Source: Candidatus Omnitrophota bacterium
Lineage (GTDB): Bacteria > Omnitrophota > Gorgyraeia > JAFGGP01
DNA length: 64,000 nucleotides
Direction: 5' to 3'
NCBI GenBank assembly: GCA_016930485.1
Contig: JAFGGP010000013.1
Coordinates: 217,157-281,156, forward strand
Position 1 is the first letter of the stretch, and every line of letters starts with the position of its first letter. The notes beneath the pieces were generated by a model. That model saw nothing but the letters and a program-made list of their open reading frames with translations, was not told where the DNA came from and did no database searches. Position numbers and translations under genes: made by a program. Shown piece after piece: positions 10,190 through 55,224 of this stretch.

Positions 10190-10206
10190 AACATCCTCCT
10201 TTTTTG

Positions 10207-33869: not shown

Positions 33870-34628
33870 TCATTCAAGTTCGTAACGCAGCATAGCCATG
33901 ATAGCCATGGCCGCTGTCTCACTGCGCAGTATCATACTCCCAAGGCTAACCGGAATGCATCCATTCTGACGGGCGCGGTCAATTTCCCAGTCCTCGAACC
34001 CGCCTTCCGGTCCTACCAGAATGAGTATGTTCTTTCCTTTCCATCCCCGCACAACAGATTTCAAAGGACGTGCGCCCACTTTGAGACACGGTATAAGCGC
34101 CAAATCATACTGATCGCTGCTTTGTGCTATTTCGGTAAATGTGGCCGGCATCATGAGCGTGGGAATGAAAGAGCGACCAGACTGCCGCGAGGCCTCCTGA
34201 ATAATAGTATGCCACCTCGCAAGTTTTCCCCCGTGCACCCCGTCCTTCTCCTGTGTAACAGACCGTTGGGAAAACATCGGAAAAAAGAAGTCAACCCCGA
34301 TCTCGGTGCACTTCTGTAGCGCAAAATCCATCTTCCTCCCCTTGAGAATAGACTGGCAAACAGTCATCGTCACTCTCCCTTTTTCCGGAGGCAGGCTTTT
34401 GACCTCAAGCACCTTGCAGACAATGTGTCCTTCTCGCTCGGCAACCGACACAATCTCTGCAAGCGCCTCTTTTCCATGCCCGTCAAAAAGAGTGACTCTA
34501 TCATGGCAACGCAACCGTAACACATCCAGACAGTAGTGAAAAAGCCTCCTGTCAGTAATGGCCACTTCAACCGCGCTGAGGGAAAAATCGGCGCAGCAGA
34601 TCCTGTGTTTTGTCTTTTTCCTACTCAT
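33870..34628 (-). CDS. rsmE: 16S rRNA (uracil1498-N3)-methyltransferase RsmE
   Basis: PUA-like N-terminus plus a SPOUT C-terminus (ILILVGPEGGFEDWEI...SLGSMILRSETAA). Confidence 0.85.
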   Translation of the reverse strand: MSRKKTKHRICCADFSLSAVEVAITDRRLFHYCLDVLRLRCHDRVTLFDGHGKEALAEIVSVAEREGHIVCKVLEVKSLPPEKGRVTMTVCQSILKGRKMDFALQKCTEIGVDFFFPMFSQRSVTQEKDGVHGGKLARWHTIIQEASRQSGRSFIPTLMMPATFTEIAQSSDQYDLALIPCLKVGARPLKSVVRGWKGKNILILVGPEGGFEDWEIDRARQNGCIPVSLGSMILRSETAAMAIMAMLRYELE

Positions 34629-36633
34629 CGTTTTCTTTGCCTCCTCCGCCGCGAAAACTCAAGGCCGCCAATTCATCGCGCGCCTGGGCGAAATGACCGT
34701 CCAACCGGAGGGTCTTGAGAAGCTCGTCCCTCGCATCATTATACCGCCCTTCTATCAGGTAACAGCGTGCCAGATTGTAGTGACTGGCAGGATTTGCCGG
34801 ATCGCGACCTATTGCCTGCTGAAAGTATGCGCCGGCTACGGCATAATCTCCTTGCAAGACCCACAATGTCCCCAATTCATGATAAATGAGTGCCAGACCC
34901 GGTGCTATCTTCTGTGCCTCCTCGTAGAAAAAAATGGCGTTGTCATACTGTTTGATAATGGTGAAAAATCGCCCGAGGCTTAAGTAGCCAATCGGGAATG
35001 CCCTCTTGCGCATCCCAAAATACTTCACGGTAATAGCCGATGTATCTAGCAACGAAAGGTCTCTATGCGCACCTTCCGTTGCCTGGCGCGTTGCGGTTGG
35101 CGTCGGTTTTTCAAATATGCAGGCGGTATCATCAAGATACACAAGATTCCATCCCTCCCGGTACAGATATCTGAGCGGAATAAGAGAATCCTCCAGGCCG
35201 TGATGCAGGAGAACCGTATCGATCTGATAACTGCTGAGCAACCTCCCATATGCCTCATCATCGCTGCACGCCTCGATATATTCCGGAAAAATGTCGGTCT
35301 CGTATAGTTCGGTCCTCCCGTCGATAAACGGCCTGAAAGAGGGGTAGCCCCGCCAAAGGATATAGCCTCCGAGTGAAAGATTATTAAATAAAACGCGCTC
35401 TTTCTTCTCTCCCAACAGAAAGGTAAGCGCTCCTTCCGGATACGTTACAGGGCTGAGGCCCAATCCCAATTTATTGTGGGAAAAAATATCCGTGAGATAC
35501 CCATTGCCTACTATCCAGCCCGTGCCGGCTACAAGAATACAGAGGGACATTCCTATGCATATGGCGCTCCCTATTCTCATACTGCGTCTTGCACATACCT
35601 CTCTATTCTGTCGAAAATAACCTTCAAGGTTGTGCCCCGTCACCATAACAGCGACGAGAGAAAAAAGGGCGATATGCCGCATCATGCTTACCGAAAGCCA
35701 AAAGACAAACAAGAAAAAGAAAAGTAGATCCAGACGCATCCGTCTTATATCGGCTATAAAACTTGCCGCGGCGCCAAGCGCCAGAAAATGCAAAAGCTCC
35801 CGCTTGTATACATAATGCGCATGAACCAGGTGTCCCTCATAAAAGGGTTTGAGCTCAGAGATATGCCGCCCCACCATGCCAGTATGCCGTGCCGCATGGT
35901 ATATCCGCCCAAGCGGATAGAGCAACTGGTGATAGCCATACGGGCCAATGCACCCCGCCGCGACTGTCGCAAGCCACACCATAACAAGTTGCCCTAACCA
36001 CGCCCCCTCCGGTACATCATCCCCTGCAGACACCGACAATATCACTACACGAAGTCTGCGAAACAGCTGATCAAACAGGAAAAGCGTGACCATCCCAATA
36101 CCAATCAGGGAATAACCGTGAAGATTCGTCCATACCGCCTGCAGTACCGGAAAAAAATAAACGAGCCTGCCTTTTTTCTTCGGTGACTCCATCATAAGCA
36201 ATAGATACAGTGCAACGAAAAAGAGCGTGAACACCTCCGGTCTTATCAATAACCTCTTTTCAGAGAGAATAATCGAACACAATGCGAATAAAACCGTCAG
36301 GAATCGCGCGGTGGACGTCCTTGCTATATAAAAAATCATGCCGTAACTTGCGGTAATAAGGAGCACCTTGAACAGAATAAGCCCCGCCACCCCGCCCAAG
36401 GAATAGATGACGGCAAATAATACCTGGGAAAGCCACTCGTGATTTATCCATTCCCTTCCCGAGGCAGTCTCGCTGTATATATCACGATGCTGGATAGCAC
36501 CTGATCGCAGAATATCGCTCCCTGCCCTCAGATGAAACCAGATATCAAAATCAAGCATCGTATGTGCAGCGATCAGCGCAACAAAAAAGAGCGTTGCCAC
36601 AACGAGCGCTCTTTCACCGTATTGAGACATCAT
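34621..36633 (-). CDS. polytopic membrane protein with C-terminal TPR repeats (GT-C-like glycosyltransferase suspected)
   Basis: More than 10 hydrophobic helices. DFDIWFHLRAG follows the first helix, then a soluble linker (FIDGRTELY) and TPR repeats. Paralogous to the upstream gene. Start taken at MMSQYG (the track ORF starts at 36702). Confidence 0.75.
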   Translation of the reverse strand: MMSQYGERALVVATLFFVALIAAHTMLDFDIWFHLRAGSDILRSGAIQHRDIYSETASGREWINHEWLSQVLFAVIYSLGGVAGLILFKVLLITASYGMIFYIARTSTARFLTVLFALCSIILSEKRLLIRPEVFTLFFVALYLLLMMESPKKKGRLVYFFPVLQAVWTNLHGYSLIGIGMVTLFLFDQLFRRLRVVILSVSAGDDVPEGAWLGQLVMVWLATVAAGCIGPYGYHQLLYPLGRIYHAARHTGMVGRHISELKPFYEGHLVHAHYVYKRELLHFLALGAAASFIADIRRMRLDLLFFFLFVFWLSVSMMRHIALFSLVAVMVTGHNLEGYFRQNREVCARRSMRIGSAICIGMSLCILVAGTGWIVGNGYLTDIFSHNKLGLGLSPVTYPEGALTFLLGEKKERVLFNNLSLGGYILWRGYPSFRPFIDGRTELYETDIFPEYIEACSDDEAYGRLLSSYQIDTVLLHHGLEDSLIPLRYLYREGWNLVYLDDTACIFEKPTPTATRQATEGAHRDLSLLDTSAITVKYFGMRKRAFPIGYLSLGRFFTIIKQYDNAIFFYEEAQKIAPGLALIYHELGTLWVLQGDYAVAGAYFQQAIGRDPANPASHYNLARCYLIEGRYNDARDELLKTLRLDGHFAQARDELAALSFRGGGGKENDE

Positions 36634-39070
36634 CGTCCCTTTCTGCACCCCCCTCTCGCAAGAGTCCCTCGGCCTTGTCTCTAAACTCCCTAAGGAGGGC
36701 ATTATCCGGTTTTATCGCTAACGCCTTATCCCATACAGCAAGCGCCTCCCGGTATCTCCCCTGCTCGGCATAAAGGGTTCCCAGATTGCGTAATGCGAGG
36801 AAGGACCGCTCGTCCCTTTGTAACACCCGTTCAAACTGCTCCTGGGCCTGCACATATTCCTTAAGCTCGGCAAGGATAACCCCCCTGTGCGTTCCCAGCA
36901 GTGCCGAATCCGGAAAAGAGTTCAATCCTTTTTCATAGACAGCCAGGGCCTCCCGCAGGCGTCCGTTTTCATAATACAGTTTTCCCGCCCTGTGAAATAT
37001 CACCTCTGACTGAGGCGCACACTCAACACCCTGGAGGTAGACACGCAAGGCCTCATCCGGCATCTTTTCGGCTGCTAATGCGTCTCCCAGCTGGATAAAA
37101 AAACCAGGGGGTCGCTCACCGTAATAGGCCTCTAGCAATACCGCTTCTTTCTCTTTAAAAAACTGCATCCGCCGGCGGATAATCCTGTCTGTCTGCTTAA
37201 GCCACCGATCGCCCGGTCTGAGCGCCAGGGCCGTCTGCAGGGCCCCCAAGGCCGCATCATACTCGAGCAAAGAGGCATAGAGAACCGCCATGTGGTGGTA
37301 AACCGATACAAGTCGCGGCTCTAGCTCTAAGGCCTTTTTATAACAGTAAAGGGCATTTTCATGAAAACCCAATGCGGTAAAAAAATCGGCAAGGCGGAGG
37401 TACGGCCACGGACAGGGCCGTTTCTTCAGACCGCTCGAGTATGTTGCAATCTCTGCCGGCGTATACTCAGGAAAAAACCGTGCAGGATCTATTTTGTACT
37501 TTTGTATAAGCGCTTCATGGCCGCGATCCTTCTTTACAAAAATGGCCGCTGTATCATCAACATAAATCAGTTCCCAGTGGACATCCTGAAAAAGCGTAAT
37601 CAAAGCAGACCACGAAACTCCAAAGTGATGATGAATAAAGGCGAGATCGAAATCGTATTTCTCTTGCCATCTGTGCCACACATCGCGATTGAGATGTATA
37701 TACTCATCCAAGAATTCCGGTGAATAATACTCCGTCCGACCGTCTATAAACACCTGCCGCGGATACAGCTGCCCTATCAGATAAGAACCAAATGCTGATG
37801 TGTTAAATAGCCTGCCCTGCCGACAGTTTTCCTTAAAGAAGGCCGCGGCCCGCAGGGGGTACATGATGTGCGAGACGCCAAATCCAAAACGGGCCGGGTG
37901 GTTGGGAAAATAATACCCATCAGCGAGGATGTGCGCACCAAACACAAAAGCAGGCAACGTCAAACACAGTGAAATAAGGGGGTCTTTCACCCAACGAACA
38001 GACCTCAGATACCAGCGGTTGCGGCTGCTTTCGCTAAACTGGGTCGCATCTTCCCAATTCTGGATATATGCCCACAGGGCAACGATAGCAAAAAGGTCTA
38101 TATGTCGCCTCATCGAAAACGCAAGATATAAACTCGCGCTGAAGATCAAAAAAAGGGAGAGGCGAAACCTGCGTATGGTTGCCAAAAAACTGACGGCGGT
38201 TAGAATAAAAAGACAGTGAAAATAGAAAAAGGTTACTGGTCTTTTGCTGAGCATACCCTCCACCAGCGGAGAAAGCTCGGTAATATACCGAATTGAGTCC
38301 TTTGCATGGAAATACGTATTGGCAATGACCCGAAACGGATAGAGCGCCCCTTCGAGAAAATAGGGATTGAGCAAACAGCAACCGGCAAGCACAAGACCCA
38401 GCATGCCCAACCGTCTGAGATCGCACAACTCCAGACAAGGTGTTGTACCACGTTTGTTGTGTATACACATCCACCGTGATAGCGACTCCCCGAGCACAAA
38501 ACAACTCACCATGACAGGACCGATAAGAAAGTACCCGTGCATATTTACCCACAGGATCTGGATGACCGGCAGTATATATAACGCGTGCGATTTTTTTCGA
38601 TAGCAAAACCGGAGCAGGCTGTACAGAAAAATACTGGTAAACAATAAAGAGAAGATGTGGGGCCGTACCAGAAACCGCGGCTCTGAGGCAACAAAGGCGG
38701 CACTCAGCATGGCGCACGTCACAAACAGATGCTCTTTTCGGGCAAAACCCACTATTAGAAAAAATGCCCCGCATAGCGTGATATACTTCAGCATAATAAG
38801 GGCAAAAGCGCCGCCGAGGCGATAGAGAGTGAAAAAGAGTATCTGCGACAGCCATTCCATATTTATCCAACGTACGCCATTGAGGGTATAGACATAAGGG
38901 TCGTTATAAATGAAAGCCCTGTTCTTAAGAAGCAGTTCCCCTGTTTTCAGGTGAAGCCAGATATCTAAATCGTAGATATCGTGGGCCGCAAAAATAAAAA
39001 GTAGAACTGCCAAGAGACTAAGCACACAAAACGATACGTATGAAACCGGCTTCTCTTTCATGTGTATCAC
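36614..39070 (-). CDS. polytopic membrane protein with C-terminal TPR repeats (paralog of 34621-36633)
   Basis: Same architecture as its paralog: DLDIWLHLKTG after helix 1, WINMEWLSQILF, FIDGRTEYY and a longer TPR tail. 818 aa. Confidence 0.8.
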   Translation of the reverse strand: MIHMKEKPVSYVSFCVLSLLAVLLFIFAAHDIYDLDIWLHLKTGELLLKNRAFIYNDPYVYTLNGVRWINMEWLSQILFFTLYRLGGAFALIMLKYITLCGAFFLIVGFARKEHLFVTCAMLSAAFVASEPRFLVRPHIFSLLFTSIFLYSLLRFCYRKKSHALYILPVIQILWVNMHGYFLIGPVMVSCFVLGESLSRWMCIHNKRGTTPCLELCDLRRLGMLGLVLAGCCLLNPYFLEGALYPFRVIANTYFHAKDSIRYITELSPLVEGMLSKRPVTFFYFHCLFILTAVSFLATIRRFRLSLFLIFSASLYLAFSMRRHIDLFAIVALWAYIQNWEDATQFSESSRNRWYLRSVRWVKDPLISLCLTLPAFVFGAHILADGYYFPNHPARFGFGVSHIMYPLRAAAFFKENCRQGRLFNTSAFGSYLIGQLYPRQVFIDGRTEYYSPEFLDEYIHLNRDVWHRWQEKYDFDLAFIHHHFGVSWSALITLFQDVHWELIYVDDTAAIFVKKDRGHEALIQKYKIDPARFFPEYTPAEIATYSSGLKKRPCPWPYLRLADFFTALGFHENALYCYKKALELEPRLVSVYHHMAVLYASLLEYDAALGALQTALALRPGDRWLKQTDRIIRRRMQFFKEKEAVLLEAYYGERPPGFFIQLGDALAAEKMPDEALRVYLQGVECAPQSEVIFHRAGKLYYENGRLREALAVYEKGLNSFPDSALLGTHRGVILAELKEYVQAQEQFERVLQRDERSFLALRNLGTLYAEQGRYREALAVWDKALAIKPDNALLREFRDKAEGLLREGGAERDDDVSIR

Positions 39071-39087: not shown

Positions 39088-40587
39088 TTAGCGGATCTCG
39101 TCCTCTGAAAAGGACTCTGTGGTGTAGATATATAACTCGGCACCCCTTGTGAGGGCGTCACGGGAAAGGCCCGCCTTATCGACCAAACAGTGCTCGATAA
39201 ACTCTTCTTTAGACCACCCTGTCTCGGCCGCAACCTCGGGAAGAAACGTCCCTGAACGAAATCCCTGTCTAATATAAATACCGTGTGTTCCCAATATCAC
39301 ATCGTCAGGTGAGGCAACCCGTTTAAGCGGCGAAAGCACGGAAATATGTATATGGATAGCATCAATTTCTTCCGGCCTGACCGGACGAAAACGCGTATCC
39401 CGTACCGCGGCGGCAATGGCCATTTCCCGCACCACCTCATAGAGGGGGCGATCGGCGATAAACTGGCCGATACAGCCCCGGAGCACCCCGTTTTCCTTGA
39501 GTGTCACAAACGCACCGGAGTGCACCGTCAGCGCCGGATCCGCGATGCTGATCTCAAGCCTCTTACCCGTTGTTACATACTCTCTGATGGAGTCGCGGGC
39601 TATCTCTAGCAGCCTCTGTTTTTGGGCCCTGGTAAAAACGCCCTCCTCCTCATGTCCCCCAGTTATCCTGCCGTCGGGCCGCTTTACAAATGCAATAGCG
39701 GCATAACCGACAACCCGCGTCTTGTCCCCCTGCGTATCGCCCGAATTGGCATGCTGCAGTATGATGCCCTCGGTGATGCCAATCTTCTCTGCCATCAACA
39801 TCAGTGTAATCATCCCGGAAAGTCCGCACATCTCGTTTTTTCTCTGGAGACACCTTGTGTATAACTCATTCCACTGCATGCCCCTTATATACTCGAGCGT
39901 GCTCTGATCCATCTTATTCGCCGTATCATAGGGATAATAATGCGACAGATCTGTACTCACCAGAAAGAGCAGTTTCTTCTCCCTTGATAAGGCAAGCAAG
40001 GCATCGCTTAAGGCAGTACACGTCTGGAACGACTGATCGCCTATGACAATCGGGACAATCGGGGTATCGGGCATCACTACCTGGAGAAACGGCAGCTGCA
40101 CCTCAAGCGAGTGCTCTTTTTTATGCGCCAGCGGCTCAAAGTGGAAGCGACTGCTCATAGACTCGAGTTTCCTGCTCAGCCCCCTGTCAACGCGCACGAT
40201 ACCCAGCGGCGTCTGGTAGTCGCCGATGCTATAAATCGACGCACCCGGAAAATCATAGTGATGGGACGGGGCCATAATGACTACCGCGTCGAAGTCCATA
40301 TTCCTGATCAGGGCGTATCCCTGCGCCGCTATGCCACCCGAATAGATATACCCAGCATGGGGAACGGCAAGACCAAAAAGCTCACCATCCACAGGGGTGT
40401 CGTGCGCCTGGGATAAAAAACCCTCTACGGTATCCCGCAGGATTTTTGGATCGGCGGGATAAAAAGTTCCGCTTACCACAGGCCTTCGTATAGTCCGCGT
40501 CTCATCCGATGCCCCAGACGTACACTGAACAGTAAAAAAACAAAGCGCCAAAATAGCGCCTAATAATAAAAGAAAGTGTCTTTTCAT
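39088..40587 (-). CDS. Memo-like (AmmeMemoRadiSam B) / AMMECR1 (A) fusion protein with N-terminal signal peptide
   Basis: N-terminal MKRHFLLLLGAILALCFFTVQCTSGA. Memo motifs SGTFYPADP, VPHAGYIYSG, EHSLEVQLPFL and STDLSHY, then the AMMECR1 motif LRGCIGQF...GTFLPEV. AGAGG lies 5 nt upstream of the ATG. Confidence 0.9.
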   Translation of the reverse strand: MKRHFLLLLGAILALCFFTVQCTSGASDETRTIRRPVVSGTFYPADPKILRDTVEGFLSQAHDTPVDGELFGLAVPHAGYIYSGGIAAQGYALIRNMDFDAVVIMAPSHHYDFPGASIYSIGDYQTPLGIVRVDRGLSRKLESMSSRFHFEPLAHKKEHSLEVQLPFLQVVMPDTPIVPIVIGDQSFQTCTALSDALLALSREKKLLFLVSTDLSHYYPYDTANKMDQSTLEYIRGMQWNELYTRCLQRKNEMCGLSGMITLMLMAEKIGITEGIILQHANSGDTQGDKTRVVGYAAIAFVKRPDGRITGGHEEEGVFTRAQKQRLLEIARDSIREYVTTGKRLEISIADPALTVHSGAFVTLKENGVLRGCIGQFIADRPLYEVVREMAIAAAVRDTRFRPVRPEEIDAIHIHISVLSPLKRVASPDDVILGTHGIYIRQGFRSGTFLPEVAAETGWSKEEFIEHCLVDKAGLSRDALTRGAELYIYTTESFSEDEIR

Positions 40588-40598
40588 AAGGACCTCTT

Positions 40599-40769
40599 TT
40601 AACCGGCGAGGTTATCGTAATAACGCGCCTCTTTGCGGTCCTCATTGCGAACAGGCGTGCTGTCCCGCCCCAGTAAGTCGCGCACGCGCGCCAGCGCTAA
40701 AGACCACACAGTGACGTAGAAAGCACCGGCAGCCTTGATGAGAAACTCACGCCGTGTCATCTTGTCCAT
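40599..40769 (-). CDS. 56-aa protein consisting mainly of a twin-arginine (Tat) signal
   Basis: MDKMTRREFLIKAAGAFYVTVWSLALA matches the Tat consensus (S/T)RRxFLK plus a hydrophobic region and AxA. AGGAGG lies 6 nt upstream of this ATG. Sits between the rSAM and Memo genes. Confidence 0.65.
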   Translation of the reverse strand: MDKMTRREFLIKAAGAFYVTVWSLALARVRDLLGRDSTPVRNEDRKEARYYDNLAG

Positions 40770-40894
40770 AGCATACCTCCTGAATAAGCGGATCATTTAC
40801 CCAACGCAGGAAACACAACGCAGAGGTCACAGGCCATCTGCGCAAAAAATTCTGCCTCTTTTTGGCGGTGCATCCCGTGCATCTCGGTCTCATC

Positions 40895-41872
40895 TCAATC
40901 ATACCACAAGCCATGGATTTTGGTATTACAAAAGCGGCATGCATCGCCCTTCAGATTATACTGAGTCACCCGATATCCGGACCTTCCCACGATAACCCTG
41001 CCGCAACTCTCGCAGTACGTCTGCTGGGCCTGTACATCGTCAATGTTTCCGATGTAGACGTAGTGCAGTCCTTCATCCATGGCAATCTCCCGGGCCGACT
41101 GCAGCGTATGAAGCGGCGTCGGGGGAAGATTCTGCAACTGATACTGCGGGTAAAAACGGGAAAAATGGAGTGGAGTCTGACGGCCCATATGCTGCGCAAT
41201 CCACCGACACATCTGCCGTATCATCGTTGGTTCGTCATTGAGCGTCGGCACGATCAAATTAGTAATCTCGACCAAAATCCCGCTGTCCTTCATTGCCACA
41301 AGGGTATCCAGCACCGGGCCCAGCCTGCCTCCGGTAACCGACTCATAGAACTCTTCGGAGAACCCCTTAAGGTCTACATTCGCACCGTCGATATAGGGGG
41401 CAATTTCTTTAAGCGGTTCGGTATTTATGAAACCGCAGGTAACCAGTATGTTCGCAAGCCCCTTCTGGTGCGCCAGTACCGCGGTGTCGTAGGTATACTC
41501 ATAAAAAATAATCGGATCACTGTAGGTATAGGCTATCGAACGGCACCGTTCACTCATGGCCTGTGCCACCACCTCCTCAGGCGCCAGATCGACATTGCGT
41601 GTCTCCTCGGGGTAGGCCTGGGAAATCTGCCAATTCTGACAATACTTGCAACTCAGGCAGCACCCTGCCGTTGCTATGGAAAAACTGCCGCTGCCGGGGT
41701 ACATATGAAACATCGGTTTTTTCTCTATCGGGTCCACATGGACGGCGCATGGCTTTCCATATACAAGGGTATACAGCTTCCCTTCCTGATTGACGCGAAC
41801 CCTGCACCGGCCGCGTTCATAGTCGCGCATCCGGCATGCATGGGGACAGAGTGTGCACTGGACCAGAGACAT
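40895..41872 (-). CDS. AmmeMemoRadiSam-system radical SAM enzyme
   Basis: N-terminal CTLCPHACRM...GRCRVR, the radical SAM cluster CCLSCKYCQNWQIS and a C-terminal Cys4 ribbon (CESCG...CRFCN). Start taken at MSLVQC (the track ORF starts at 41962). Confidence 0.88.
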   Translation of the reverse strand: MSLVQCTLCPHACRMRDYERGRCRVRVNQEGKLYTLVYGKPCAVHVDPIEKKPMFHMYPGSGSFSIATAGCCLSCKYCQNWQISQAYPEETRNVDLAPEEVVAQAMSERCRSIAYTYSDPIIFYEYTYDTAVLAHQKGLANILVTCGFINTEPLKEIAPYIDGANVDLKGFSEEFYESVTGGRLGPVLDTLVAMKDSGILVEITNLIVPTLNDEPTMIRQMCRWIAQHMGRQTPLHFSRFYPQYQLQNLPPTPLHTLQSAREIAMDEGLHYVYIGNIDDVQAQQTYCESCGRVIVGRSGYRVTQYNLKGDACRFCNTKIHGLWYD

Positions 41873-41880
41873 TATATCGC

Positions 41881-42111
41881 CTACCTCTCCAGAGTCTGAT
41901 ACCACCGGGCCTCGCGCGGAATCAACCCCTTCTGTAAGGCATCCTGAAACCTGCGTTCCCACTGTGCCCTGTCATAGAAATCCGGGGACGTCTGTACCGA
42001 AAAAAAAGCACCGGTAATATCATACAGCAGATGGACCGCAAGAAGGCCTACTATCATACATGTATATATCACCGCGATGTAGCCGATCTTGGGCGAAGTA
42101 CTATATCGCAT
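41881..42111 (-). CDS. 76-aa single-pass membrane protein, function unknown
   Basis: MRYSTSPKIGYIAVIYTCMIVGLLAVHLLYDI plus a charged tail. It fills the gap between the polyferredoxin gene stop (42101) and the rSAM start (41872). The longer 162-aa track ORF overlaps the upstream gene out of frame. Confidence 0.45.
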   Translation of the reverse strand: MRYSTSPKIGYIAVIYTCMIVGLLAVHLLYDITGAFFSVQTSPDFYDRAQWERRFQDALQKGLIPREARWYQTLER

Positions 42112-43495
42112 GCGTACGGCCCCGTTCCTTCCGCCGGCTGATATGTATGCCGGCCTTCCGGCATACACGCCGGCACTCATTACACCTGATGCACTCGCTA
42201 TTCTTAATGCCCTCACCGTCGATGCACGCAGTCTCGCACGCCAGACCGCATGCGCCGCACCTCGAGCAGTTCGTCTGTTCCATCCGCAAAGAAAAAACCG
42301 AAAAACGCGAAAGGAGGGCCAGCGCCGCGCCCGTGGGACAAAAATAACGGCACCAGAATCGTATGACAAATACCCCTATGGCCAATACACTACTAACAAG
42401 GACCCAGTCAAGAATGCCTCCGCGAAGGCGAAAGCCCGTCACAAACGGCTCATACCGGGACAGATCAACCGTGGGGATAACAAATGAGGCAGAAAGGATA
42501 ACAGCAAGCAAGGAATATTTTATATACTTGAGCCGTCTATCGATTCGTCGGGGAATGATCAGCTTTGTATTGGGGACTGCGGCATACACAATCTCCTGGA
42601 GTGCGCCAAATGGACACAGATACCCACAGTATACCCTGCCATAGAACCCGGTAAGGATAATAATAAAGCCGGTATAAAAGAACCAAAAATACGTATACGC
42701 AAAAACAGGCAACTCCAGTGTCAAAAGGGTCCGTAGGTGACTAAGCGACAGGAACTCACCTGCAAGAAAACCGAAATAGACAACACTGATACATAAGATA
42801 ACATAGCGCAGTTTTCTCTGTAACACATAGTCGTACAGTGCTAAAAAAATGAGCAATATCAATACAGCCAGCTTCGTAAGCGGATGCAACAGGTACGCAA
42901 AAAAAGAAAGGGGTTTCTTGACTGTTTCCGGGAAGGTTTCTCCCGTTTTCCCTAAGAGCTCACGATTGACCAGTGCGATGCTTTTTTTGATCGATCGGGC
43001 AACACAACCCGCCGATACCGTTGCTCCGGTAATGCCGTCGATATCCCCGCCGAGTATCAGTGGGTCGTCCGGGGTCTTTCCGGTAAACTGCCCCAGGAAC
43101 CAGTCGGATTCGATGGCCATCGCATATGAGGCAGTTTCACGGTGCCTGAGAATCCGCGCGCCCGTGACGGAACCGGCGCGGTTTATTCCCAGTGCCACCT
43201 GAATGGGCCCTTCATAGCCCCGTTCCCCGGGAACAAGCTGGGTCGTTATAACGGCGTAGCCAAGAATCTCCTCGGAGGCAAGGCGTCGGTAGAGGCCAAA
43301 GACGGTGAAATGGGGAATTTTTTTTTCGCTGTACTCAACCCGCGTAACGGTACAGTCGCCGGGAAAAAGCCCTACGGCCAGGTCCCGGTCGATAAGAAGC
43401 GGCGGACCGCTTGACTGTCTGACTGTTACGTGGCAATAACATAACGTTACTATGAAAAGGGCCCACAGAAAAAGGGAGGCCGCTTTTTTGGACAT
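42101..43495 (-). CDS. FMN-binding domain / NapH-NosR-like polyferredoxin membrane protein
   Basis: N-terminal anchor. FMN_bind domain with the flavinylation motif DIDGITGATVS. TM block with CGYLCPFGALQE and CRYFCPTGAA. C-terminal 2x[4Fe-4S] CSRCGACGLAC...CIRCNECRRVC. Confidence 0.85.
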   Translation of the reverse strand: MSKKAASLFLWALFIVTLCYCHVTVRQSSGPPLLIDRDLAVGLFPGDCTVTRVEYSEKKIPHFTVFGLYRRLASEEILGYAVITTQLVPGERGYEGPIQVALGINRAGSVTGARILRHRETASYAMAIESDWFLGQFTGKTPDDPLILGGDIDGITGATVSAGCVARSIKKSIALVNRELLGKTGETFPETVKKPLSFFAYLLHPLTKLAVLILLIFLALYDYVLQRKLRYVILCISVVYFGFLAGEFLSLSHLRTLLTLELPVFAYTYFWFFYTGFIIILTGFYGRVYCGYLCPFGALQEIVYAAVPNTKLIIPRRIDRRLKYIKYSLLAVILSASFVIPTVDLSRYEPFVTGFRLRGGILDWVLVSSVLAIGVFVIRFWCRYFCPTGAALALLSRFSVFSLRMEQTNCSRCGACGLACETACIDGEGIKNSECIRCNECRRVCRKAGIHISRRKERGRTHAI

Positions 43496-43531
43496 GCACC
43501 GCCCTCGCATCACTATAGTTCATGGTGTGCT

Positions 43532-44074
43532 CTACGTCTCTGAAAAGACATCCGCCGAAAATACAAAGAGCTCGCTCTCGTCGTCTCTCCAGGCATCTTC
43601 CGGCAGGCCGGCCTTGATGCAGATATGCCGCAAAAATGTATCGCGATCCCATCCATATCGGGCTGCAACCTGGGGTAGGAGAAGGCCGGAAAAGAAACCC
43701 TTTCGGATATAAAGCCCATGAAGGCCTATGTGGATCTCGCTGGGCGCCTGAATTCTCTGAAATTCACTGAGTATCGAGAGCTCAATGGTTATGGAATTAA
43801 CCTCTTCGCTTTGAAGCGGGTGAAAACGGGGGTCATGGAAGGCCGCCTGCAGGGCCATTTCTCGGATGACGTCTATAAGCACCCGGTCAGCGGCAATGTG
43901 ACCAATGCAGCCGCGCAACTCACCTTCTTTTTCGAGTGTGACAAAGGCCCCGCACTTTTCAAGAAAAACAGGGTCAACGGCAACCGGTCGTACCGGTTTT
44001 TTTCCTTTGAGGGAATCACCGATTGCCTGCCTCGCAACCGTCAATAATGTTCTTTTCTGTATTTCGTTAAACAT
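43532..44074 (-). CDS. AMMECR1 domain protein (AmmeMemoRadiSam system protein A), stand-alone
   Basis: LRGCIGHI, FHDPRF and SGLLLPQV. 180 aa with no signal sequence. Confidence 0.9.
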   Translation of the reverse strand: MFNEIQKRTLLTVARQAIGDSLKGKKPVRPVAVDPVFLEKCGAFVTLEKEGELRGCIGHIAADRVLIDVIREMALQAAFHDPRFHPLQSEEVNSITIELSILSEFQRIQAPSEIHIGLHGLYIRKGFFSGLLLPQVAARYGWDRDTFLRHICIKAGLPEDAWRDDESELFVFSADVFSET

Positions 44075-44218
44075 CGCGACTATCGTCTTGCCGACTCTGC
44101 ATTGTCAGGGTCGTTTACTGCGCATCTCTTGAAATGCCAAAAAGCATCACGTCAGTAACAGTAACCAGCAAAACAAATTCTACGAAGCCATGCATGAAAA
44201 TAGCATGGCGAAGTAGAA

Positions 44219-44240
44219 TGGTGGAGCTGGGGGGATTTGA
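44219..44240 (-). repeat. 22-bp direct duplicate of the tRNA-Ala 3' end (att-like)
   Basis: tggtggagctggggggatttga is identical to 44411-44432. On the minus strand this is TCAAATCCCCCCAGCTCCACCA, running from the T-loop to CCA. Confidence 0.85.
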
Positions 44241-44410
44241 CGCCTGCGCCTTCGCAGGGGCTCCGGCTCCGGTCGGTCACTCGGCCACTGACGGGCGGTC
44301 ATTCCTGACTTACGCCCTTCTCCTCACCTATCGGTCGGCGTGGCCTCACTTCAAATCCCCTTCTACAACTATTGCATCAAACAGCGCCACACACGTATTA
44401 CAACATAGTT

Positions 44411-44486
44411 TGGTGGAGCTGGGGGGATTTGAACCCCCGACCTCTTGAGTGCGATTCAAGCGCGCTCCCAACTGCGCTACAGCCCC
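44411..44486 (-). tRNA. tRNA-Ala (anticodon CGC)
   Basis: Cloverleaf by hand: acceptor GGGGCTG/CAGCTCC with the G3:U70 alanine identity pair, anticodon arm CTTGA-ATCGCAC-TCAAG, T arm GGGGG-TTCAAAT-CCCCC, with CCA encoded. 76 nt. Confidence 0.95.
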
Positions 44487-44495
44487 ACACTAAAA

Positions 44496-44660
44496 AATTC
44501 CAAATAACAAATGAATCGCCTCACTACCGATTAAACCCTACATCCGAAACCCTGCCATTTTATCCCCACATTGAAATGTGGGGCTGCACTATTTTCCTGA
44601 TTTCATTTGGATTTTGTCTGCCTGCCGAACAGACAGGGATTGCGTCATTTGTCATTGAAA
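44496..44660. repeat. intergenic repeat element, copy 2 (~165 nt)
   Basis: Same ordered blocks as 25346-25488, including an identical hairpin ccccacat-tgaa-atgtgggg (44564-44583). It also carries a copy-specific ~26-nt insertion that is itself a hairpin (tgtctg-cctgccgaa-cagaca). Confidence 0.7.
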
Positions 44661-44669
44661 AGTTATGTA

Positions 44670-45239
44670 TTATGTCTGCCCGGCCTTGCACCGAAGACAC
44701 ACACCGGAAATAAGTGTCAGATATTCGTATTTGAATGCATCGTCTATCTTGACCCCTGTCACTTTACGGCAGCCTGTAATCGTAATATTAACCATATGTG
44801 CATCCGGGACCACGTTAAACTCGAGAAAACTGATATCCGAACTCAAAACGGTCGTCTGTGCCCCTCCCCCGTCGGGTGTGCGGATGCACTCAAGATCGCT
44901 GCCGCTTAATTGATACTCATACTTTGTGTCATCGCTAAAAACGCTGGGGGTGTTTAATTCGTCCACCCATATTTCAAGGTGCTCGGCACTGATGCGGTTA
45001 ATTGCGGTTCCTTTTTTCAAGTTACTCTGCATGTGTTCCATAATAAAGGCGACATCGCTGGCGATTCGGGATTGCGCGCTCGCCGACTTGAAAAATCGTC
45101 TGCTTGAGACATCAATCATCATGACCGCGATAAACACCAGGCTCGAGAGCACCACCGCCAGCATCAGCTCAACAATATTGACACCGCTACAGCTCCTGAA
45201 GACGTCGCTCCTCAGAATTATTCGTTTGGCTCGTTCCAT
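44670..45239 (-). CDS. minor (pseudo)pilin with prepilin-type N-terminus
   Basis: ...RSCSG/VNIVELMLAVVLSSLVFIAVMMI: Gly at -1, Glu at +5 and a hydrophobic helix. Last gene of the pilin block. Confidence 0.65.
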   Translation of the reverse strand: MERAKRIILRSDVFRSCSGVNIVELMLAVVLSSLVFIAVMMIDVSSRRFFKSASAQSRIASDVAFIMEHMQSNLKKGTAINRISAEHLEIWVDELNTPSVFSDDTKYEYQLSGSDLECIRTPDGGGAQTTVLSSDISFLEFNVVPDAHMVNITITGCRKVTGVKIDDAFKYEYLTLISGVCLRCKAGQT

Positions 45240-45631
45240 GTCACTTTTGTCGTTACCTTTTTATAATCGCCGATATCCTCGATGCGCAGGTAGGAAGTCC
45301 CGCTAAAGATATAACCAAAGCTGTTTCCAGGGTCATTTGGCACGCTCGGAAACTCACCGGAATACCCGGTGGCGGTGGCAGGATCAATAAAACCGTCCGC
45401 GTCTGCGTCAGGCAGTGCCAGCGTATCTTGCAGGACTGTTTCAAAATGGCCTCGTGATCTCACGGACTCCATAAGCTGGCGCGAAAAATTAAGTGCCGTC
45501 ATACGCCTGCTCTGCCGGTCGACCGCTCGCTCGGCAAGGGAAAAGACCTGAAACATCCCTGCCATAATCACCGTCAGAAGAAGCATCGAGGTAATTACTT
45601 CGATAAACGTAAGTCCTTGCTGGTCCTTCAT
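45218..45631 (-). CDS. minor (pseudo)pilin with prepilin-type N-terminus
   Basis: MKDQQG/LTFIEVITSMLLLTVIMAGMFQVF, a short leader with Gly-1 and Glu+5. Confidence 0.75.
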   Translation of the reverse strand: MKDQQGLTFIEVITSMLLLTVIMAGMFQVFSLAERAVDRQSRRMTALNFSRQLMESVRSRGHFETVLQDTLALPDADADGFIDPATATGYSGEFPSVPNDPGNSFGYIFSGTSYLRIEDIGDYKKVTTKVTWNEPNE

Positions 45632-45633
45632 CG

Positions 45634-46407
45634 CTAATTCACCTTAACGAGAATGAGCACTGCCCCCTCTCCCTCTGAAAGCTCGCTCAGTGCCTTGCCC
45701 AGCGCCATCCCGTACTGCAGCTTCGCTGGATCGGCCTTCATTGCATAGCCTGCTTTTGAGCTGGTCACTAAGATATCGCCGCGTTTGATTGGGCCGCCCT
45801 CGGTAGTAGCATTGCACATCACTCTGCCTGCAAGGGCAAGCGGTTTGCCCGATTCAGGGTCCCCTATTTTAAAAACAGGGTTTTGCGATATTATCCCCGC
45901 AACCGTCGCGTCATAAGGTGCATAACTTTTAATGACAGCATCATCATTATCAGGATCTATCACAACAACATCTCCCCCCTCGCAACCATCGGCTCGAATA
46001 TACTCTGCAATATCAGGATGAATCTGACCTCCATTAAGCGATATAGTGCTAGTCCCTGTGGCAGAGCCGACAATCAAATTGCCAAGAACTGTAGCGTTAT
46101 TGCCGACACTCAAATCCTGACTTACGCTCACCCCGCCGCCCGTATCCATCAGGTCGATCGTATTTGCCTGCAGCACGACGCTATTGGCCGTAGTATTCAC
46201 CTGCAGCATAGTGCCGCCCCCTGCGGTAAAATCATCCTCAACGATCAGGTCCCCTCCGTCACCCGCAACCTCCACCACCTCGACCATCTTAAACTTACCG
46301 TACGGGGCCGGATAATAGGTGGTAAGAGTAATATCCTCGGCGGATAGCGTGTGATATGAGAGCACAATCAGAAAAAAAATCAGTAGGCCGAACCGCCATT
46401 TTTTCAT
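45634..46407 (-). CDS. secreted protein embedded in the pilin block, function unknown
   Basis: Signal peptide MKKWRFGLLIFFLIVLSYHTLSA/ED, then TTYYPAPYG. A Gly/Thr/Asn/Val-rich middle region suggests a beta-solenoid, and there is a C-terminal module (GDVVVIDP...YDATVAGIIS...ALAGRVMC...GDILVTSSKAGYAMKA). No pilin N-terminus. Confidence 0.7.
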   Translation of the reverse strand: MKKWRFGLLIFFLIVLSYHTLSAEDITLTTYYPAPYGKFKMVEVVEVAGDGGDLIVEDDFTAGGGTMLQVNTTANSVVLQANTIDLMDTGGGVSVSQDLSVGNNATVLGNLIVGSATGTSTISLNGGQIHPDIAEYIRADGCEGGDVVVIDPDNDDAVIKSYAPYDATVAGIISQNPVFKIGDPESGKPLALAGRVMCNATTEGGPIKRGDILVTSSKAGYAMKADPAKLQYGMALGKALSELSEGEGAVLILVKVN

Positions 46408-46488
46408 AATCCCCTCCTCTGGTATCGCTGTTCATGACAATGCGATTGCTGTGCGGTTTCTGAATATCCCACGAAAGGAAAATACCTG

Positions 46489-46932
46489 CTATGGATTGAA
46501 GGGCCCTTGCACATCTCCCGACTTTTGAATCCTATACCTGTCACCCTCGCGCGCCCCTCTCAGACGTGTTGCCTCGGCAATAAAATCCTCCAGGAGCGTG
46601 TCCGGCGGCGGTGGGGGGGCAAGAGAATAGCTAAAATCCCTCTGGGATTCAACGCGGGCATTCGGGTTTTCGATATTAAGGAGATTGAGGTCGTCGCTAA
46701 AAACCCTGTATTCAGAAAAATACACCTCTTGACCGGCCCGGATCAGGCGAAGCAACGCCCTCGCCTCCTTGGTCCTGGCGTTCTCCGCCACATCAATATA
46801 CTGGGGCATAACGAGTATAAAGAGAACAGAGATAATTAATAGAACGACGAGCACCTCTGCGAGTGAAAAGCCACTTGTAGCATGCTCCATTGAGCCAGCT
46901 CTTTTTGGCCTGTCGCACTGATTTGGGTGCAC
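46489..46932 (-). CDS. type IV pilin-like protein
   Basis: ...HATSG/FSLAEVLVVLLIISVLFILVMPQY. GTG start with AAGGAG 8 nt upstream. Confidence 0.8.
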   Translation of the reverse strand: MHPNQCDRPKRAGSMEHATSGFSLAEVLVVLLIISVLFILVMPQYIDVAENARTKEARALLRLIRAGQEVYFSEYRVFSDDLNLLNIENPNARVESQRDFSYSLAPPPPPDTLLEDFIAEATRLRGAREGDRYRIQKSGDVQGPFNP

Positions 46933-46961
46933 GTTATATCTCCTTAGAAAAATACATCAAT

Positions 46962-47025
46962 AAAAAAACCGTAGACAGTTTATCTCTGGCCGATTATGGC
47001 GCCTGTGAAAAACATACATCTACGG
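46962..47025 (-). terminator. possible attenuating terminator after the major pilin gene
   Basis: Minus strand CCGTAGA (47025-47019) pairs with TCTACGG (46975-46969), followed immediately by T7 (46968-46962). The 43-nt loop is large, so this is weakly supported. Confidence 0.3.
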
Positions 47026-47060
47026 CTTCTTTACGTAACTTCCGGTAGCGGTAGGGAGTA

Positions 47061-47486
47061 TTACCGGGTGACTGCAAACTGGTGTTCACCGCCGATCGCG
47101 CCGGTCTGATCCATGGTAATGGTCTGGCCGTGCCAGGGTCCCCCGTTTCGCGTAGCAATAGCAGTGAAACCAAGGTCGGTCGCACCGCATACCTCATAAG
47201 CGAAGTATCTGCCCGAAATGTCGACGTCCAATATAGCATTAATAGCGCTCATATCGGTCGCGTTCACATAACTTTCCCATTCAAGATAGTAGAGCTTTTC
47301 ACCGGTCAGAATGCTTCCAAGGTTGGTCTTCGCCTCACCTGTTTTTGCCTTCTCAATGGAGTTCGCGTATTGAGGCACCGCAATGCTTGCAAGAATGCCT
47401 AAAATAATCACAACGATGAGCACCTCGATGAGAGTAAAGCCCCTGTTCTTCACACCCCACCTCCTTTTCTGTTTGCCCGTTCGCAT
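47061..47486 (-). CDS. major type IV pilin / GspG-like pseudopilin
   Basis: ...VKNRG/FTLIEVLIVVIILGILASIAVPQY is a canonical prepilin cleavage/methylation site. It has its own strong promoter. Confidence 0.9.
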   Translation of the reverse strand: MRTGKQKRRWGVKNRGFTLIEVLIVVIILGILASIAVPQYANSIEKAKTGEAKTNLGSILTGEKLYYLEWESYVNATDMSAINAILDVDISGRYFAYEVCGATDLGFTAIATRNGGPWHGQTITMDQTGAIGGEHQFAVTR

Positions 47487-47524
47487 ACCTTGCCTTACCT
47501 ATTGTAGATACATCTGTTAAAGTA

Positions 47525-47553
47525 AGTATAGCCAACTATCCGAGCCCTGTCAA
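47525..47553 (-). promoter_or_regulatory. sigma-70-type promoter for the major pilin gene
   Basis: Minus strand TTGACA (47553-47548), 17 nt, TATACT (47530-47525), about 38 nt upstream of the ATG at 47486. Confidence 0.65.
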
Positions 47554-47664
47554 GGGAATTTCTCTCATCAGGCATGATCATTTCAATGCCCTTTTCTCCA
47601 AGCGCATCTACCCTCTCGGGAATAGAAAACCAGGCCTCTTTTTTTCGGTCCTCACGGTAAAAGA

Positions 47665-48885
47665 TCAGCCGATTGTCGAAATCTTAAATATCGGCAAGAA
47701 CATCGAGACAACCAATACGCCGATTGTCGTGCCCACCAGAATAAGAATGGTTGGCTCGATCAAGGTCGTAAGCTTGGAGACAGAGGCGTTGAGGCGCTCC
47801 TCATAAAACTCCGAGATCCTGTCAAGCATCTTGCCCAGTTCTCCGATTTCTTCTCCCACCGCGACCATCTGCGTTACCATAACCGGAAATACACCGCTTT
47901 CTTCCAGCGGGGTTGCCATGTTTTTACCATCGCGCACGTCGGCCTTAACCGCATTGAGTACGTCCTCTACAAGGGCGTTATTCGATGTCTTGCCTACAAT
48001 TTCAAGGGCATGCAATATCGGCACACCGCTCTTGATCAAGGTTCCCAGACCGCTGGCAAACCGGGACGCCTGCAGCTGAACAACGATGGTGCCGATGACC
48101 GGGGCATTAAAAAGGGCAATATCCTTAATTCGGCGCCCCTGCGCTGTTCTTAAAAACAGAAATGCCCCGTACCCGCCGGCTGCCAGTGCTATCAGGAGAA
48201 CCCAGAAATACCGCTTAAGCCAGTAACTGATGGCGATAACAATCTGGGTGAGTTGGGGCAGTTCCATATTAAACCCCTCAAAGATCTTCGAAAAAACAGG
48301 GATAACGTGTGTCAAAAAAACAAGGATCGCTGCCACTGACACGCCGATTAAGATAGCCGGATAATAGATTGCCGCCATGACCTTTCGCCTCAGCGAGGCA
48401 ATCGATTCCAGATGCTTCACCAGCTGATCAAGGCTTGACGGAAGATGTCCGCTCGCCTCGCCCGTCTCAACAAGATTAACCCAGAAAGAGCTAAATACCT
48501 TTGGATGGGAACGGAGCGCCCGTGAGAACGGTTCGCCGCCCTGAATCGCCTTACGCACATCCGTCAATACCTTCAAAAGCTGTTGACTCTCGACCTGCTT
48601 GGCGATAATATCGAGAGACCTGAGAAGTGTTACGCCGGACTCGAGCAGGGTTGACAATTGCCGGCCAAACAGTATCAGGTCATCCAGCTTTATCCGTTTG
48701 TGCATCCGGCTCCGCATGAACAAAAACTTCAGACTCCAGCTCTTTCCCTCATCTACCTTGATAAAGGTAACCGTAAGCCCTTTTGCCTGGAGCATGGTAA
48801 TGGCTTCGTCTTTATTAATGGCATCGAGGGAGCCTTTTTGCGTTTGTCCGGTCTTATCGCGTGTTGTGTATATATATCGTGGCAT
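47665..48885 (-). CDS. type II secretion system F family platform protein (PilC/GspF)
   Basis: Two T2SSF repeats and three TM segments. 406 aa. Confidence 0.9.
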   Translation of the reverse strand: MPRYIYTTRDKTGQTQKGSLDAINKDEAITMLQAKGLTVTFIKVDEGKSWSLKFLFMRSRMHKRIKLDDLILFGRQLSTLLESGVTLLRSLDIIAKQVESQQLLKVLTDVRKAIQGGEPFSRALRSHPKVFSSFWVNLVETGEASGHLPSSLDQLVKHLESIASLRRKVMAAIYYPAILIGVSVAAILVFLTHVIPVFSKIFEGFNMELPQLTQIVIAISYWLKRYFWVLLIALAAGGYGAFLFLRTAQGRRIKDIALFNAPVIGTIVVQLQASRFASGLGTLIKSGVPILHALEIVGKTSNNALVEDVLNAVKADVRDGKNMATPLEESGVFPVMVTQMVAVGEEIGELGKMLDRISEFYEERLNASVSKLTTLIEPTILILVGTTIGVLVVSMFLPIFKISTIG

Positions 48886-48899
48886 ATATTGCCCCTCTC

Positions 48900-50615: not shown

Positions 50616-50618
50616 TGC

Positions 50619-52235: not shown

Positions 52236-52804
52236 TGCTTCTCTTCCTGCCAATGCTCTATCAGAGATGGCTTCACCTCAAAATATGTTCCACGATACTC
52301 TAACATAACACCATCTTTTTTAATCTTGACCACCGTTGCCCCCGACACCTCGTCTCCAATGCCGACGATCTGATTATTAATGATAGCCTGAGGACGCACA
52401 TCGCTGACGATCAGTCCCTGAATGCTAAGCTTCGGTAACTGCTCGGGTTTAATCCCCACTAAAACCTTCTGGTCTTCGACAACCGCCTCCTCCCGAAAAA
52501 GCGACAGAAAATCATCGTTTGGAATAAAAAGGTCACGCCCTATTTCGTATTCTGTAGATTTAACAGTAAAAATGGGTTTTTCCTTGAGTTTTTTTTCAAC
52601 CGCATTAAAACGGGCGTCCAAGGTCTTCTTTTTGGAAACAGGCGGAAGGGTTTCCCGGTTGCGGGGCATGACGTACGGAAGCACCTGCTTGTACACCATA
52701 AACCCCCCGATAAGCGCCAGTACAACCATCACTATTATCTCCTGTTGCTGCTTATTCAACGTCCTCTCACCGCCTTCGCTAAACTGCGCACATATACTAC
52801 TCAC
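52232..52804 (-). CDS. PilP/GspC-like single-pass protein
   Basis: One TM helix, then a C-terminal beta-rich domain (QGLIVSDVRPQAIINNQIVGIGDEVSGATVVKI). Its position between the PilO-like gene and the secretin fits this role. Confidence 0.5.
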   Translation of the reverse strand: MSSICAQFSEGGERTLNKQQQEIIVMVVLALIGGFMVYKQVLPYVMPRNRETLPPVSKKKTLDARFNAVEKKLKEKPIFTVKSTEYEIGRDLFIPNDDFLSLFREEAVVEDQKVLVGIKPEQLPKLSIQGLIVSDVRPQAIINNQIVGIGDEVSGATVVKIKKDGVMLEYRGTYFEVKPSLIEHWQEEKQ

Positions 52805-52812
52805 CCGACCCC

Positions 52813-55025: not shown

Positions 55026-55224
55026 GTTTCTTCCCCTGGGCATTCCAGTGTAGCGGTTCAACAGAATTCGCCTGCAGCCAGTTGTCCACCTTTTCTCGGT
55101 CGAAACGCCACAGCCTCCCTACCTTGATGGCAGGAAGTCTGTGCTGATGCAACCAATTATAAAGGGTCTGCTTCTCGAGTTTTAGGTATTCAGCCAATTC
55201 ATTTATATCCATTAAATGTCGCAT
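55015..55224 (-). CDS. small helix-turn-helix DNA-binding protein (excisionase/MerR-type HTH_17)
   Basis: MDINELAEYLKLEKQTLYNWLHQHRLPAIKVGRLWRFDREKVDNWL. It is the first gene after the AT-rich region and overlaps the pilM-like start. Confidence 0.75.
   Translation of the reverse strand: MRHLMDINELAEYLKLEKQTLYNWLHQHRLPAIKVGRLWRFDREKVDNWLQANSVEPLHWNAQGKKHDI

Follow-up and report, generated by a model that had tools for sequence, protein, structure and literature searches.

A 64,000-nt stretch of DNA from a Candidatus Omnitrophota bacterium (contig JAFGGP010000013.1, positions 217,157 to 281,156; hereafter the window) contains a locus that appears to belong to a widespread and apparently undescribed version of the AmmeMemoRadiSam system, which seems to work outside the cytoplasm. 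The AMMECR1, Memo and radical S-adenosylmethionine (SAM) genes lie together here in one 5-kb co-directional cluster of six genes, named A to F in order: a stand-alone AMMECR1 protein (A), a NosR/NapH-like membrane protein (B), a small protein with one transmembrane (TM) helix (C), the radical SAM enzyme (D), a small twin-arginine signal protein (E) and a Memo-AMMECR1 fusion (F). As judged from the sequences, D is a split enzyme, and the N-terminal strand of its family resides on both C and E. Related loci and proteins are cited below by L and P numbers, respectively.

Radical SAM enzyme and the two small proteins

The comparison of D with the family model TIGR04337 gave 384.6 bits against a cutoff of 220, and the alignment began at position 12 of the hidden Markov model. 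D begins with MSLVQCTLCP, and the first 11 model positions of the family are not in D (the NCBI gene call, P0241 of 326 aa, is one codon longer at the start). The truncated start was common to 113 of the 120 closest D homologues. Full-length relatives encoded beside the fusion have a signal peptide followed by the motif xEAxYY, about 6 residues and V.C.LCP, and signal-less full-length relatives begin with M.E..YY. The EAxYY motif aligned to positions 1-3 of TIGR04337 in the full-length relatives. Only models of the PFL-activase type were matched by D, and no SPASM domain or recognition domain for ribosomally synthesized and post-translationally modified peptides (RiPPs) was found in it.

The two small proteins gave no match to a library family; both end in (R/K/H)EAx(Y/W)(Y/W). 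C ends in GLIPREARWYQTLER, and the C-type proteins encoded between B and D have a basic N-terminus, one TM helix and the tail GLx[PL][HRKQ]EAxYW[KE]. E has a twin-arginine signal (TRREFLIK, an h-region and ALA) followed by the tail RKEARYYDNLAG. It reads MDKMTRREFLIKAAGAFYVTVWSLALA and then RV, with the S/T-R-R-x-F-L-K pattern, the moderately hydrophobic h-region and the AxA site of a signal for twin-arginine translocation (Tat). At least 17 distinct loci have an E-type gene immediately behind D, its product consisting of RRxFL, a weakly hydrophobic h-region, an AxA-like site and the tail [LP]KEAxYY...LAG or PKEA[LM]FWRK; the Tat-signal features of E-type proteins were judged by eye and by regular expression. 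Both C and E are conserved genes, with homologues of like layout on dozens of independent contigs.

Once joined to D, the tails of C and E aligned to positions 1-11 of TIGR04337. When the last 14 residues of E or C were added to D, the alignment reached position 1 and the score was 390.1 or 391.1 bits, respectively, compared with 385.7 bits for D with a scrambled tail. No solved structure was found for the enzyme family of D. In the AlphaFold2 model of the cis-form relative P0285 (mean pLDDT 87), the motif forms a strand at residues 57-59 just before the V-Q-C strand at residues 65-67, and the two strands are arranged in a hairpin-like layout.

Since the motif is the N-terminus of the family, D starts at position 12 and the tails extend the alignment to position 1, the comparison shows that C and E each carry the strand that D has lost. 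By sequence, the motif of C and E is thus the native N-terminal strand of the TIGR04337 enzyme family, detached from D; C reads as a membrane anchor with the detached strand, and E as a twin-arginine signal peptide with a second copy of it. A preliminary description of the locus had listed a single-TM and a Tat-signal open reading frame (ORF), and these two are read here as split-off N-terminal pieces of the radical SAM enzyme and not as extra components.

Two ways of joining neighbouring genes were considered and rejected. A programmed frameshift between C and D does not agree with their spacing, which ranges from a 10-nt overlap to an 88-nt gap. Stop-codon read-through from E into F, which are in the same frame in L106/L155, was discarded, since the sequence there is a plain TAG and then ATG, and the F protein starts with a signal peptide of its own.

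Conservation of gene linkage

The linkage check proposed in the preliminary description was carried out, and B, C-type and E-type genes were found linked to AmmeMemoRadiSam genes in many unrelated contigs. The locus had been described as expanded; it is no isolated case and belongs to a large family. Few database proteins have the short architecture of B. The best of them, P0002 (38% identity), comes from an unrelated metagenome-assembled genome (MAG), and its locus in this distant MAG (L001) consists of a Memo-AMMECR1 fusion, B, a 72-aa gene, D and a 61-aa gene. The search with an alignment of B recovered 80 metagenome contigs. Of the 51 contigs with at least 700 nt of room, 33 had D within 3 kb on the downstream side of B, and some Memo, AMMECR1 or radical SAM gene was present on 46 of 69 informative contigs. 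For the long form of B, which like B of the window has a C-terminal 2x[4Fe-4S] domain, D was the next gene in 12 of 13 informative contigs and F in the thirteenth. Lookups starting from D homologues likewise gave B immediately upstream, with a small ORF between, in all cases (4/4). The gene order and both small genes were conserved across many contigs at 29-40% identity. No link to the AmmeMemoRadiSam system was found for the short B relatives of the P0056 type (L004 and L005), and the contig of P0080 ends too early to judge linkage.

Several B-C-D-E loci contain no Memo-AMMECR1 gene within 8 kb, which indicates that the radical SAM enzyme is the constant partner of B. The earlier picture of a membrane protein interleaved with the whole set was not supported in this respect, the constant partner being D and not F. 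Natural fusions were also detected. In L171, the C-terminus of B continues into C: the ferredoxin domain is followed by ARKK, a TM helix and ...GLPLHEGKYWQEVP. The same B-C fusion was seen by ORF in L147, L158, L159 and L160, and in L097 the N-terminus of D carries C. These comparisons show that B-C-D-E is a conserved module, often accompanied by F and by a spermidine-synthase-like protein described below.

Membrane electron carrier

B contains an FMN_bind domain (PF04205; aa 93-172, 46.3 bits) and two copies of Fer4_5 (PF12801; 55.8 bits), both above cutoff, and carries the flavinylation-type motif DGITGATVS. In order from the N-terminus, it consists of an anchor, the FMN_bind domain, about 5 more TM helices with two CX3CP motifs, and a ferredoxin domain with 2x CxxCxxCxxxC. 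Its score against NosR (NF046105) was 111.6 bits compared with a cutoff of 1000, with only model positions 411-662 matched, and its length of 464 aa, compared with about 700 aa for full-length NosR, does not correspond to the NosR architecture. The scores against the NapH/MauN models were also below cutoff (TIGR02163, 70.5 vs 213; NF007013, 66.8 vs 234), and the RnfG model matched B partially, below its equivalog cutoff. NapH-like flavinylated proteins are defined as multi-TM PF12801 proteins bearing or adjoining an FMN_bind domain (PMC8238504). B agrees with this definition of Meheust et al. 2021, having PF12801 and FMN_bind in one protein. No apbE was recognised in the scan of window genes.

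Six hydrophobic segments were detected in B by a crude hydropathy and positive-inside method, which favoured an N-in orientation (K/R, 14 vs 7). Wunsch and Zumft in 2005 and Brondijk et al. in 2004 reportedly placed the flavin domain of NosR/NapH outside the membrane and the CX3CP and ferredoxin centres inside, and the segment number and orientation of B agree with this layout. B is accordingly predicted to have its FMN domain outward and its iron-sulfur centres inward. In the B-C fusions, the ferredoxin domain of B is followed by one additional TM helix. As this helix comes after an inward domain, the docking tail would lie outside, beside the FMN domain.

Export signals of the fusion and of related enzymes

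The Memo part of F (about aa 34-300) scored 275.4 bits against TIGR04336 (cutoff 26), and the AMMECR1 part (aa 327-493) scored 169.4 bits against TIGR04335 (cutoff 99). The N-terminus of F is hydrophobic (MKRHFLLLLGAILALCFFTVQC). An N-terminal hydrophobic signal was present in 102 of the 120 closest F homologues, several of them with lipoboxes; the export signal previously proposed for the fusion is thus supported as a family-wide feature. Alignment of 31 F homologues showed that the Memo metal-site residues (PHAGY, EHS, DxSH and CG) and the AMMECR1 motif LRGCIG were invariant in all. F is thus predicted to be an extracytoplasmic protein of the secreted or lipoprotein type.

No signal peptide was found in stand-alone Memo or AMMECR1 proteins, including A, which scored 183.8 bits against TIGR04335 (cutoff 99) in the family-model search and shares 43% identity with the AMMECR1 half of F. 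Given that it has no signal peptide, A probably works on the cytoplasmic side of the membrane. The gene immediately preceding B also encodes AMMECR1 in L103, L105, L115, L131/132 and L139, and the protein is signal-less there too. In L115 (2757-7105), a signal-bearing Memo-AMMECR1 fusion is followed by separate signal-less Memo and AMMECR1 genes, all ahead of B, so that a cytoplasmic set and an exported set occur on one contig.

Among 41 genomic radical SAM genes located beside Memo-AMMECR1 fusions, the products had RR-type (9), KR-type (13) or Sec-like (7) signals, or no signal (12). The KR-type signals were mostly from Bacteroidota and the Sec-like signals from Omnitrophota (radical SAM genes beside the fusion in L006, L014, L016, L021, L028 and L041). 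The fusion adjoining a signal-bearing enzyme also had a detected signal in 28 of 29 cases. In four loci from Prevotella MAGs (L055, L056, L061 and L079), the fusion has a lipoprotein-like signal (MMMNxC) and the radical SAM enzyme has no signal and starts with M.EC.YY; the system may straddle the membrane in these loci.

Proposed mechanism

The preliminary description had proposed a trans-envelope redox or protein-maturation system. The conserved linkage and the family-wide signal of the fusion make the trans-envelope redox reading the best fit, and no specific support was obtained for protein maturation. In its specific form, for which we see about equal grounds for belief and for doubt, D is exported in folded form with E as its Tat carrier, is docked on C by the periplasmic flavin of B, and receives its electron from B. 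The export of D itself is inferred. D would fold and gain its iron-sulfur clusters in the cytoplasm, E would complete the N-terminal hairpin of D, and the complex would cross the membrane by the Tat pathway as a hitchhiker. Outside, the tail of C would hold D beside the FMN domain of B. B would draw electrons from quinol or cytoplasmic donors and relay them through its flavin to the [4Fe-4S] cluster of D, thereby replacing the flavodoxin or ferredoxin that normally serves radical SAM enzymes. D and F would then act jointly on an envelope substrate. SAM could ride bound to D and be regenerated, or could come via the spermidine-synthase-like polytopic protein.

A wider proposal, which we put forward tentatively and would not expect to hold in full, is that extracytoplasmic radical SAM chemistry occurs in many phyla and combines Tat export in cis or by a carrier, reduction by a NosR/NapH-type protein, a polytopic helper whose outward SAM-fold (spermidine-synthase-like) domain would deliver or handle SAM, and modification of an envelope component with secreted Memo-AMMECR1.

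Several points weigh against the export of D and the arrangement built on it. To our knowledge, no radical SAM enzyme works outside the cytoplasm, and we know of no extracytoplasmic supply of SAM. A has no signal peptide, and in about 9 genomic loci a signal-bearing fusion is paired with a signal-less radical SAM enzyme, so that co-localisation is not universal. The co-occurrence of signals (p=0.001) is unreliable, as three Prevotella fusions were misclassified, and it weakens when they are scored correctly. The Sec-like signals of the cis-form enzymes of Omnitrophota have no RR and are hard to reconcile with iron-sulfur enzymes. For the split itself, the gain on concatenation was only about 6 bits, the confidence of the motif strand in the P0285 model was moderate (about 74), the C-D fusion is a single metagenome contig, and there is no explanation for two carriers, C and E, of one strand slot. 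The TM and positive-inside predictor was our own and crude, gave inconsistent helix counts, and lends weak support only. Neither tat nor apbE was evident in the window, to which the search was confined.

Alternative explanations

The alternative that survives best, although we consider it rather unlikely, keeps D in the cytoplasm. D would be tethered inside by the tails of C and E and reduced by the inner iron-sulfur centres of B, with only F outside; the pathway would straddle the membrane, and its target, such as a lipid-linked intermediate, would cross it. SAM, reductants and iron-sulfur assembly are all cytoplasmic, and a vestigial Tat motif is present on NarG, a cytoplasmic enzyme. The signal-less A and the roughly nine loci with an exported fusion and a signal-less enzyme are also in line with a cytoplasmic D, as is the weak asymmetry of the flank charges of C-type anchors (judged partly by eye). 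However, the signals of 22 of the 41 related enzymes are of the Tat type, look cleavable and have h-regions of such weak hydrophobicity that they would make poor anchors, and the signal of E, TRREFLIK with an ALA site, is a textbook one. The odd TM helix of the B-C fusions, placed after a domain that is cytoplasmic in NosR/NapH, points to an outside tail, and a cytoplasmic D leaves no role for the outward FMN domain of B.

Another explanation takes C and E for precursor peptides or substrates, whose aromatic pair D would modify in the cytoplasm before E is exported by Tat. Small ORFs do adjoin the radical SAM gene, their tails have a conserved E-A-x-aromatic-aromatic pattern, and E has a Tat signal. 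Parallels in peptide maturation are PqqA/PqqE, the QHNDH gamma subunit and HxsA, and cytoplasmic radical SAM maturation of a periplasm-bound protein has a precedent (PMC13128918). The motif is nevertheless the N-terminus of the enzyme family itself, which relatives both with and without a signal carry in cis, and it is absent from D exactly where C and E provide it. It is also a predicted structural strand in the P0285 model, and no aromatic residue in it is invariant (YY, YW, WY, FW and HY were all seen). The domain content of D, which is that of a PFL-activase-type protein, does not fit the assignment of C and E as RiPP precursors. These observations make the substrate explanation improbable. 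A precursor of a Glu-Tyr crosslink like that of pyrroloquinoline quinone was considered separately and rejected, since no Tyr is invariant.

The weakest explanation, fortuitous adjacency of an ordinary NosR/NapH protein of nitrogen-oxide respiration and non-coding small ORFs, could appeal to NosR being the best NCBIfam match of B and to C and E having no library family, and is highly improbable, given how far B falls below the NosR and NapH cutoffs, the absence of nos and nap genes among the neighbours scanned, and the conserved order, small genes and fusions described above.

Layout of the locus and neighbouring genes

The six minus-strand ORFs A to F, reported earlier as tightly spaced, were all recovered (Table 1), with gaps or overlaps of 10-125 nt. 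The intergenic gaps were 36 nt (A-B), 125 nt (D-E) and 11 nt (E-F), and the overlaps were 11 nt (B/C) and 10 nt (C/D); F and G are separated by 17 nt. A scan for promoters and terminators gave results at chance level. Long plus-strand ORFs at 44134-44713 overlap the tRNA-Ala gene and are probably not genes.

Table 1. Features of the locus, of the surrounding window and of related contigs. Coordinates refer to the window unless a locus is named.
Feature	Coordinates	Strand	Remarks
A, stand-alone AMMECR1 (AmmeMemoRadiSam protein A)	43532-44074	minus	TIGR04335, PF01871; first gene of the operon
B, NosR/NapH-like membrane flavo-iron-sulfur protein	42101-43495	minus	PF04205 + PF12801
C, 76-aa single-TM protein	41881-42111	minus	conserved tail; no library family
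D, AmmeMemoRadiSam radical SAM enzyme, predicted 'split' type	40895-41872	minus	TIGR04337
E, 56-aa twin-arginine signal protein	40599-40769	minus	TRREFLIK; no library family
F, Memo-AMMECR1 fusion with N-terminal signal peptide	39088-40587	minus	TIGR04336 + TIGR04335
G, 818-aa polytopic membrane protein with C-terminal tetratricopeptide repeats (TPRs)	36614-39070	minus	TPR matches only; doubtful member
H, 693-aa paralogue of G	34621-36702	minus	33% identity; doubtful member
tRNA-Ala (CGC) gene	44411-44486	minus	between the locus and the upstream pilus/type II secretion system (T2SS) cluster
Type IV pilus/type II secretion-like cluster	44670-55061	minus	upstream of the locus
Prepilin N-methylation motif proteins	45218-45631, 46489-46932, 47061-47486	minus	within the pilus/T2SS-like cluster
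T2SS protein F homologue	47665-48885	minus	within the pilus/T2SS-like cluster
Second radical SAM protein, 302 aa, unrelated to D	55924-56832	minus	PF04055; N-terminal region with CRLCPRECGINRL
Spermidine-synthase-like genes	L001 5411-7681; L013 1300-3411; L100 10682-12958 (-); L168 8142-10373 (-); L171 8118-10292 (-)		

G and H are tandem paralogues (33% identity over 618 aa) with about 8 TM helices and C-terminal TPRs. The polytopic and TPR parts of their earlier description were confirmed; the label of C-type glycosyltransferase (GT-C)-like proteins was not verified, as their membrane parts had no Pfam match at E<=5 and no sequence match in the PDB. They had also been listed as following the locus, and no counterpart was found in about 170 related loci, the only echo elsewhere being one weak TPR-level match of G in L007. 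Their membership in the system is doubtful, and they are best regarded as co-directional neighbours. RsmE-like and MiaB-like genes lie downstream of G/H. In L169, the convergent gene downstream of B-C-D-E-F (9807-11645, minus strand) encodes a PMT_2-family (GT-C) protein, the only case seen; G and H have no similarity to it.

A polytopic protein of about 750 aa with a spermidine-synthase-like domain (NF037959, PF01564; 'fused MFS/spermidine synthase') was encoded more often than any other next to B and to Memo-AMMECR1 fusions. It was present in 77 of 171 loci, namely in 46 of 82 derived from B and in 26 of 80 derived from the fusion, and was fused to B in L156 (269-4924), L158 and L160-163. 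The gene is absent from the 64-kb window. The SAM-fold domain was placed outside in 7 of 8 orthologues by a crude topology analysis, which constitutes weak evidence.

Comparison with known systems

The locus resembles the three-gene AmmeMemoRadiSam system in that TIGR04335, TIGR04336 and TIGR04337 are all matched above their curated cutoffs within one operon. It differs in several respects. Memo and AMMECR1 form one signal-bearing fusion protein, and an additional AMMECR1 without a signal is encoded. Model positions 1-11 are missing from the radical SAM enzyme and are found, by sequence, on two separate small proteins, and a transmembrane electron carrier appears as an obligate partner.

Burroughs et al. 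are said to have surveyed Memo gene contexts in 2019 (JBC 294:10211). Apart from that survey, which our search did not cover, no paper was found on exported AmmeMemoRadiSam parts, on a link to NapH-like proteins or on a split radical SAM enzyme. The literature search also gave nothing on exported or periplasmic radical SAM enzymes, and the term 'AmmeMemoRadiSam' returned incidental mentions only.

NapH-like flavinylated proteins are known as a modular route that feeds electrons to extracytosolic enzymes, and the partners of most such modules are unknown (PMC8238504). The words Memo, AMMECR1 and radical SAM are absent from the main text of that paper, the search having been limited to the text without its supplementary tables. 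B is similar to these modules (NosR/NosZ, PceC/PceA) in its N-terminal FMN_bind domain with the motif and in its PF12801 part. Unlike them, it has a radical SAM enzyme with Memo/AMMECR1 as its partner, and in many genomes it has a C-terminal tail that would serve as a docking strand for that partner.

Tat hitchhiking is an established mode of export (PMC10924467). As in the known hitchhikers (HybO/HybC and the small subunits of periplasmic dehydrogenases), a signal-less cofactor protein is encoded here beside a twin-arginine partner, whereas the putative carrier consists of a signal peptide and about 12 residues, a detached strand of its presumed cargo. The HXS system likewise couples a radical SAM gene to a small protein destined for the periplasm; its radical SAM enzyme is thought to be cytoplasmic and the exported protein to be its substrate (PMC13128918). 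In the present locus, by contrast, the conserved part of the small protein derives, as judged from the sequences, from the enzyme itself.

If this reading is true, one of the many orphan NapH-like flavinylated modules would be assigned a partner, and Tat hitchhiking would gain a new minimal form, in which the carrier is no more than a signal peptide with one strand. The enzyme D would be the first extracytoplasmic radical SAM enzyme, and it would then have to be explained how the periplasm is supplied with SAM and low-potential electrons.

Memo and AMMECR1 are conserved from archaea to humans, where MEMO1 has been linked to cell motility and to cancer, and AMMECR1 to a syndrome with X-linked inheritance. 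The biochemical role of Memo, AMMECR1 and their radical SAM partner has been open for years, and the present family gives testable handles on their location and partners, namely an electron donor, a docking strand and an export route.

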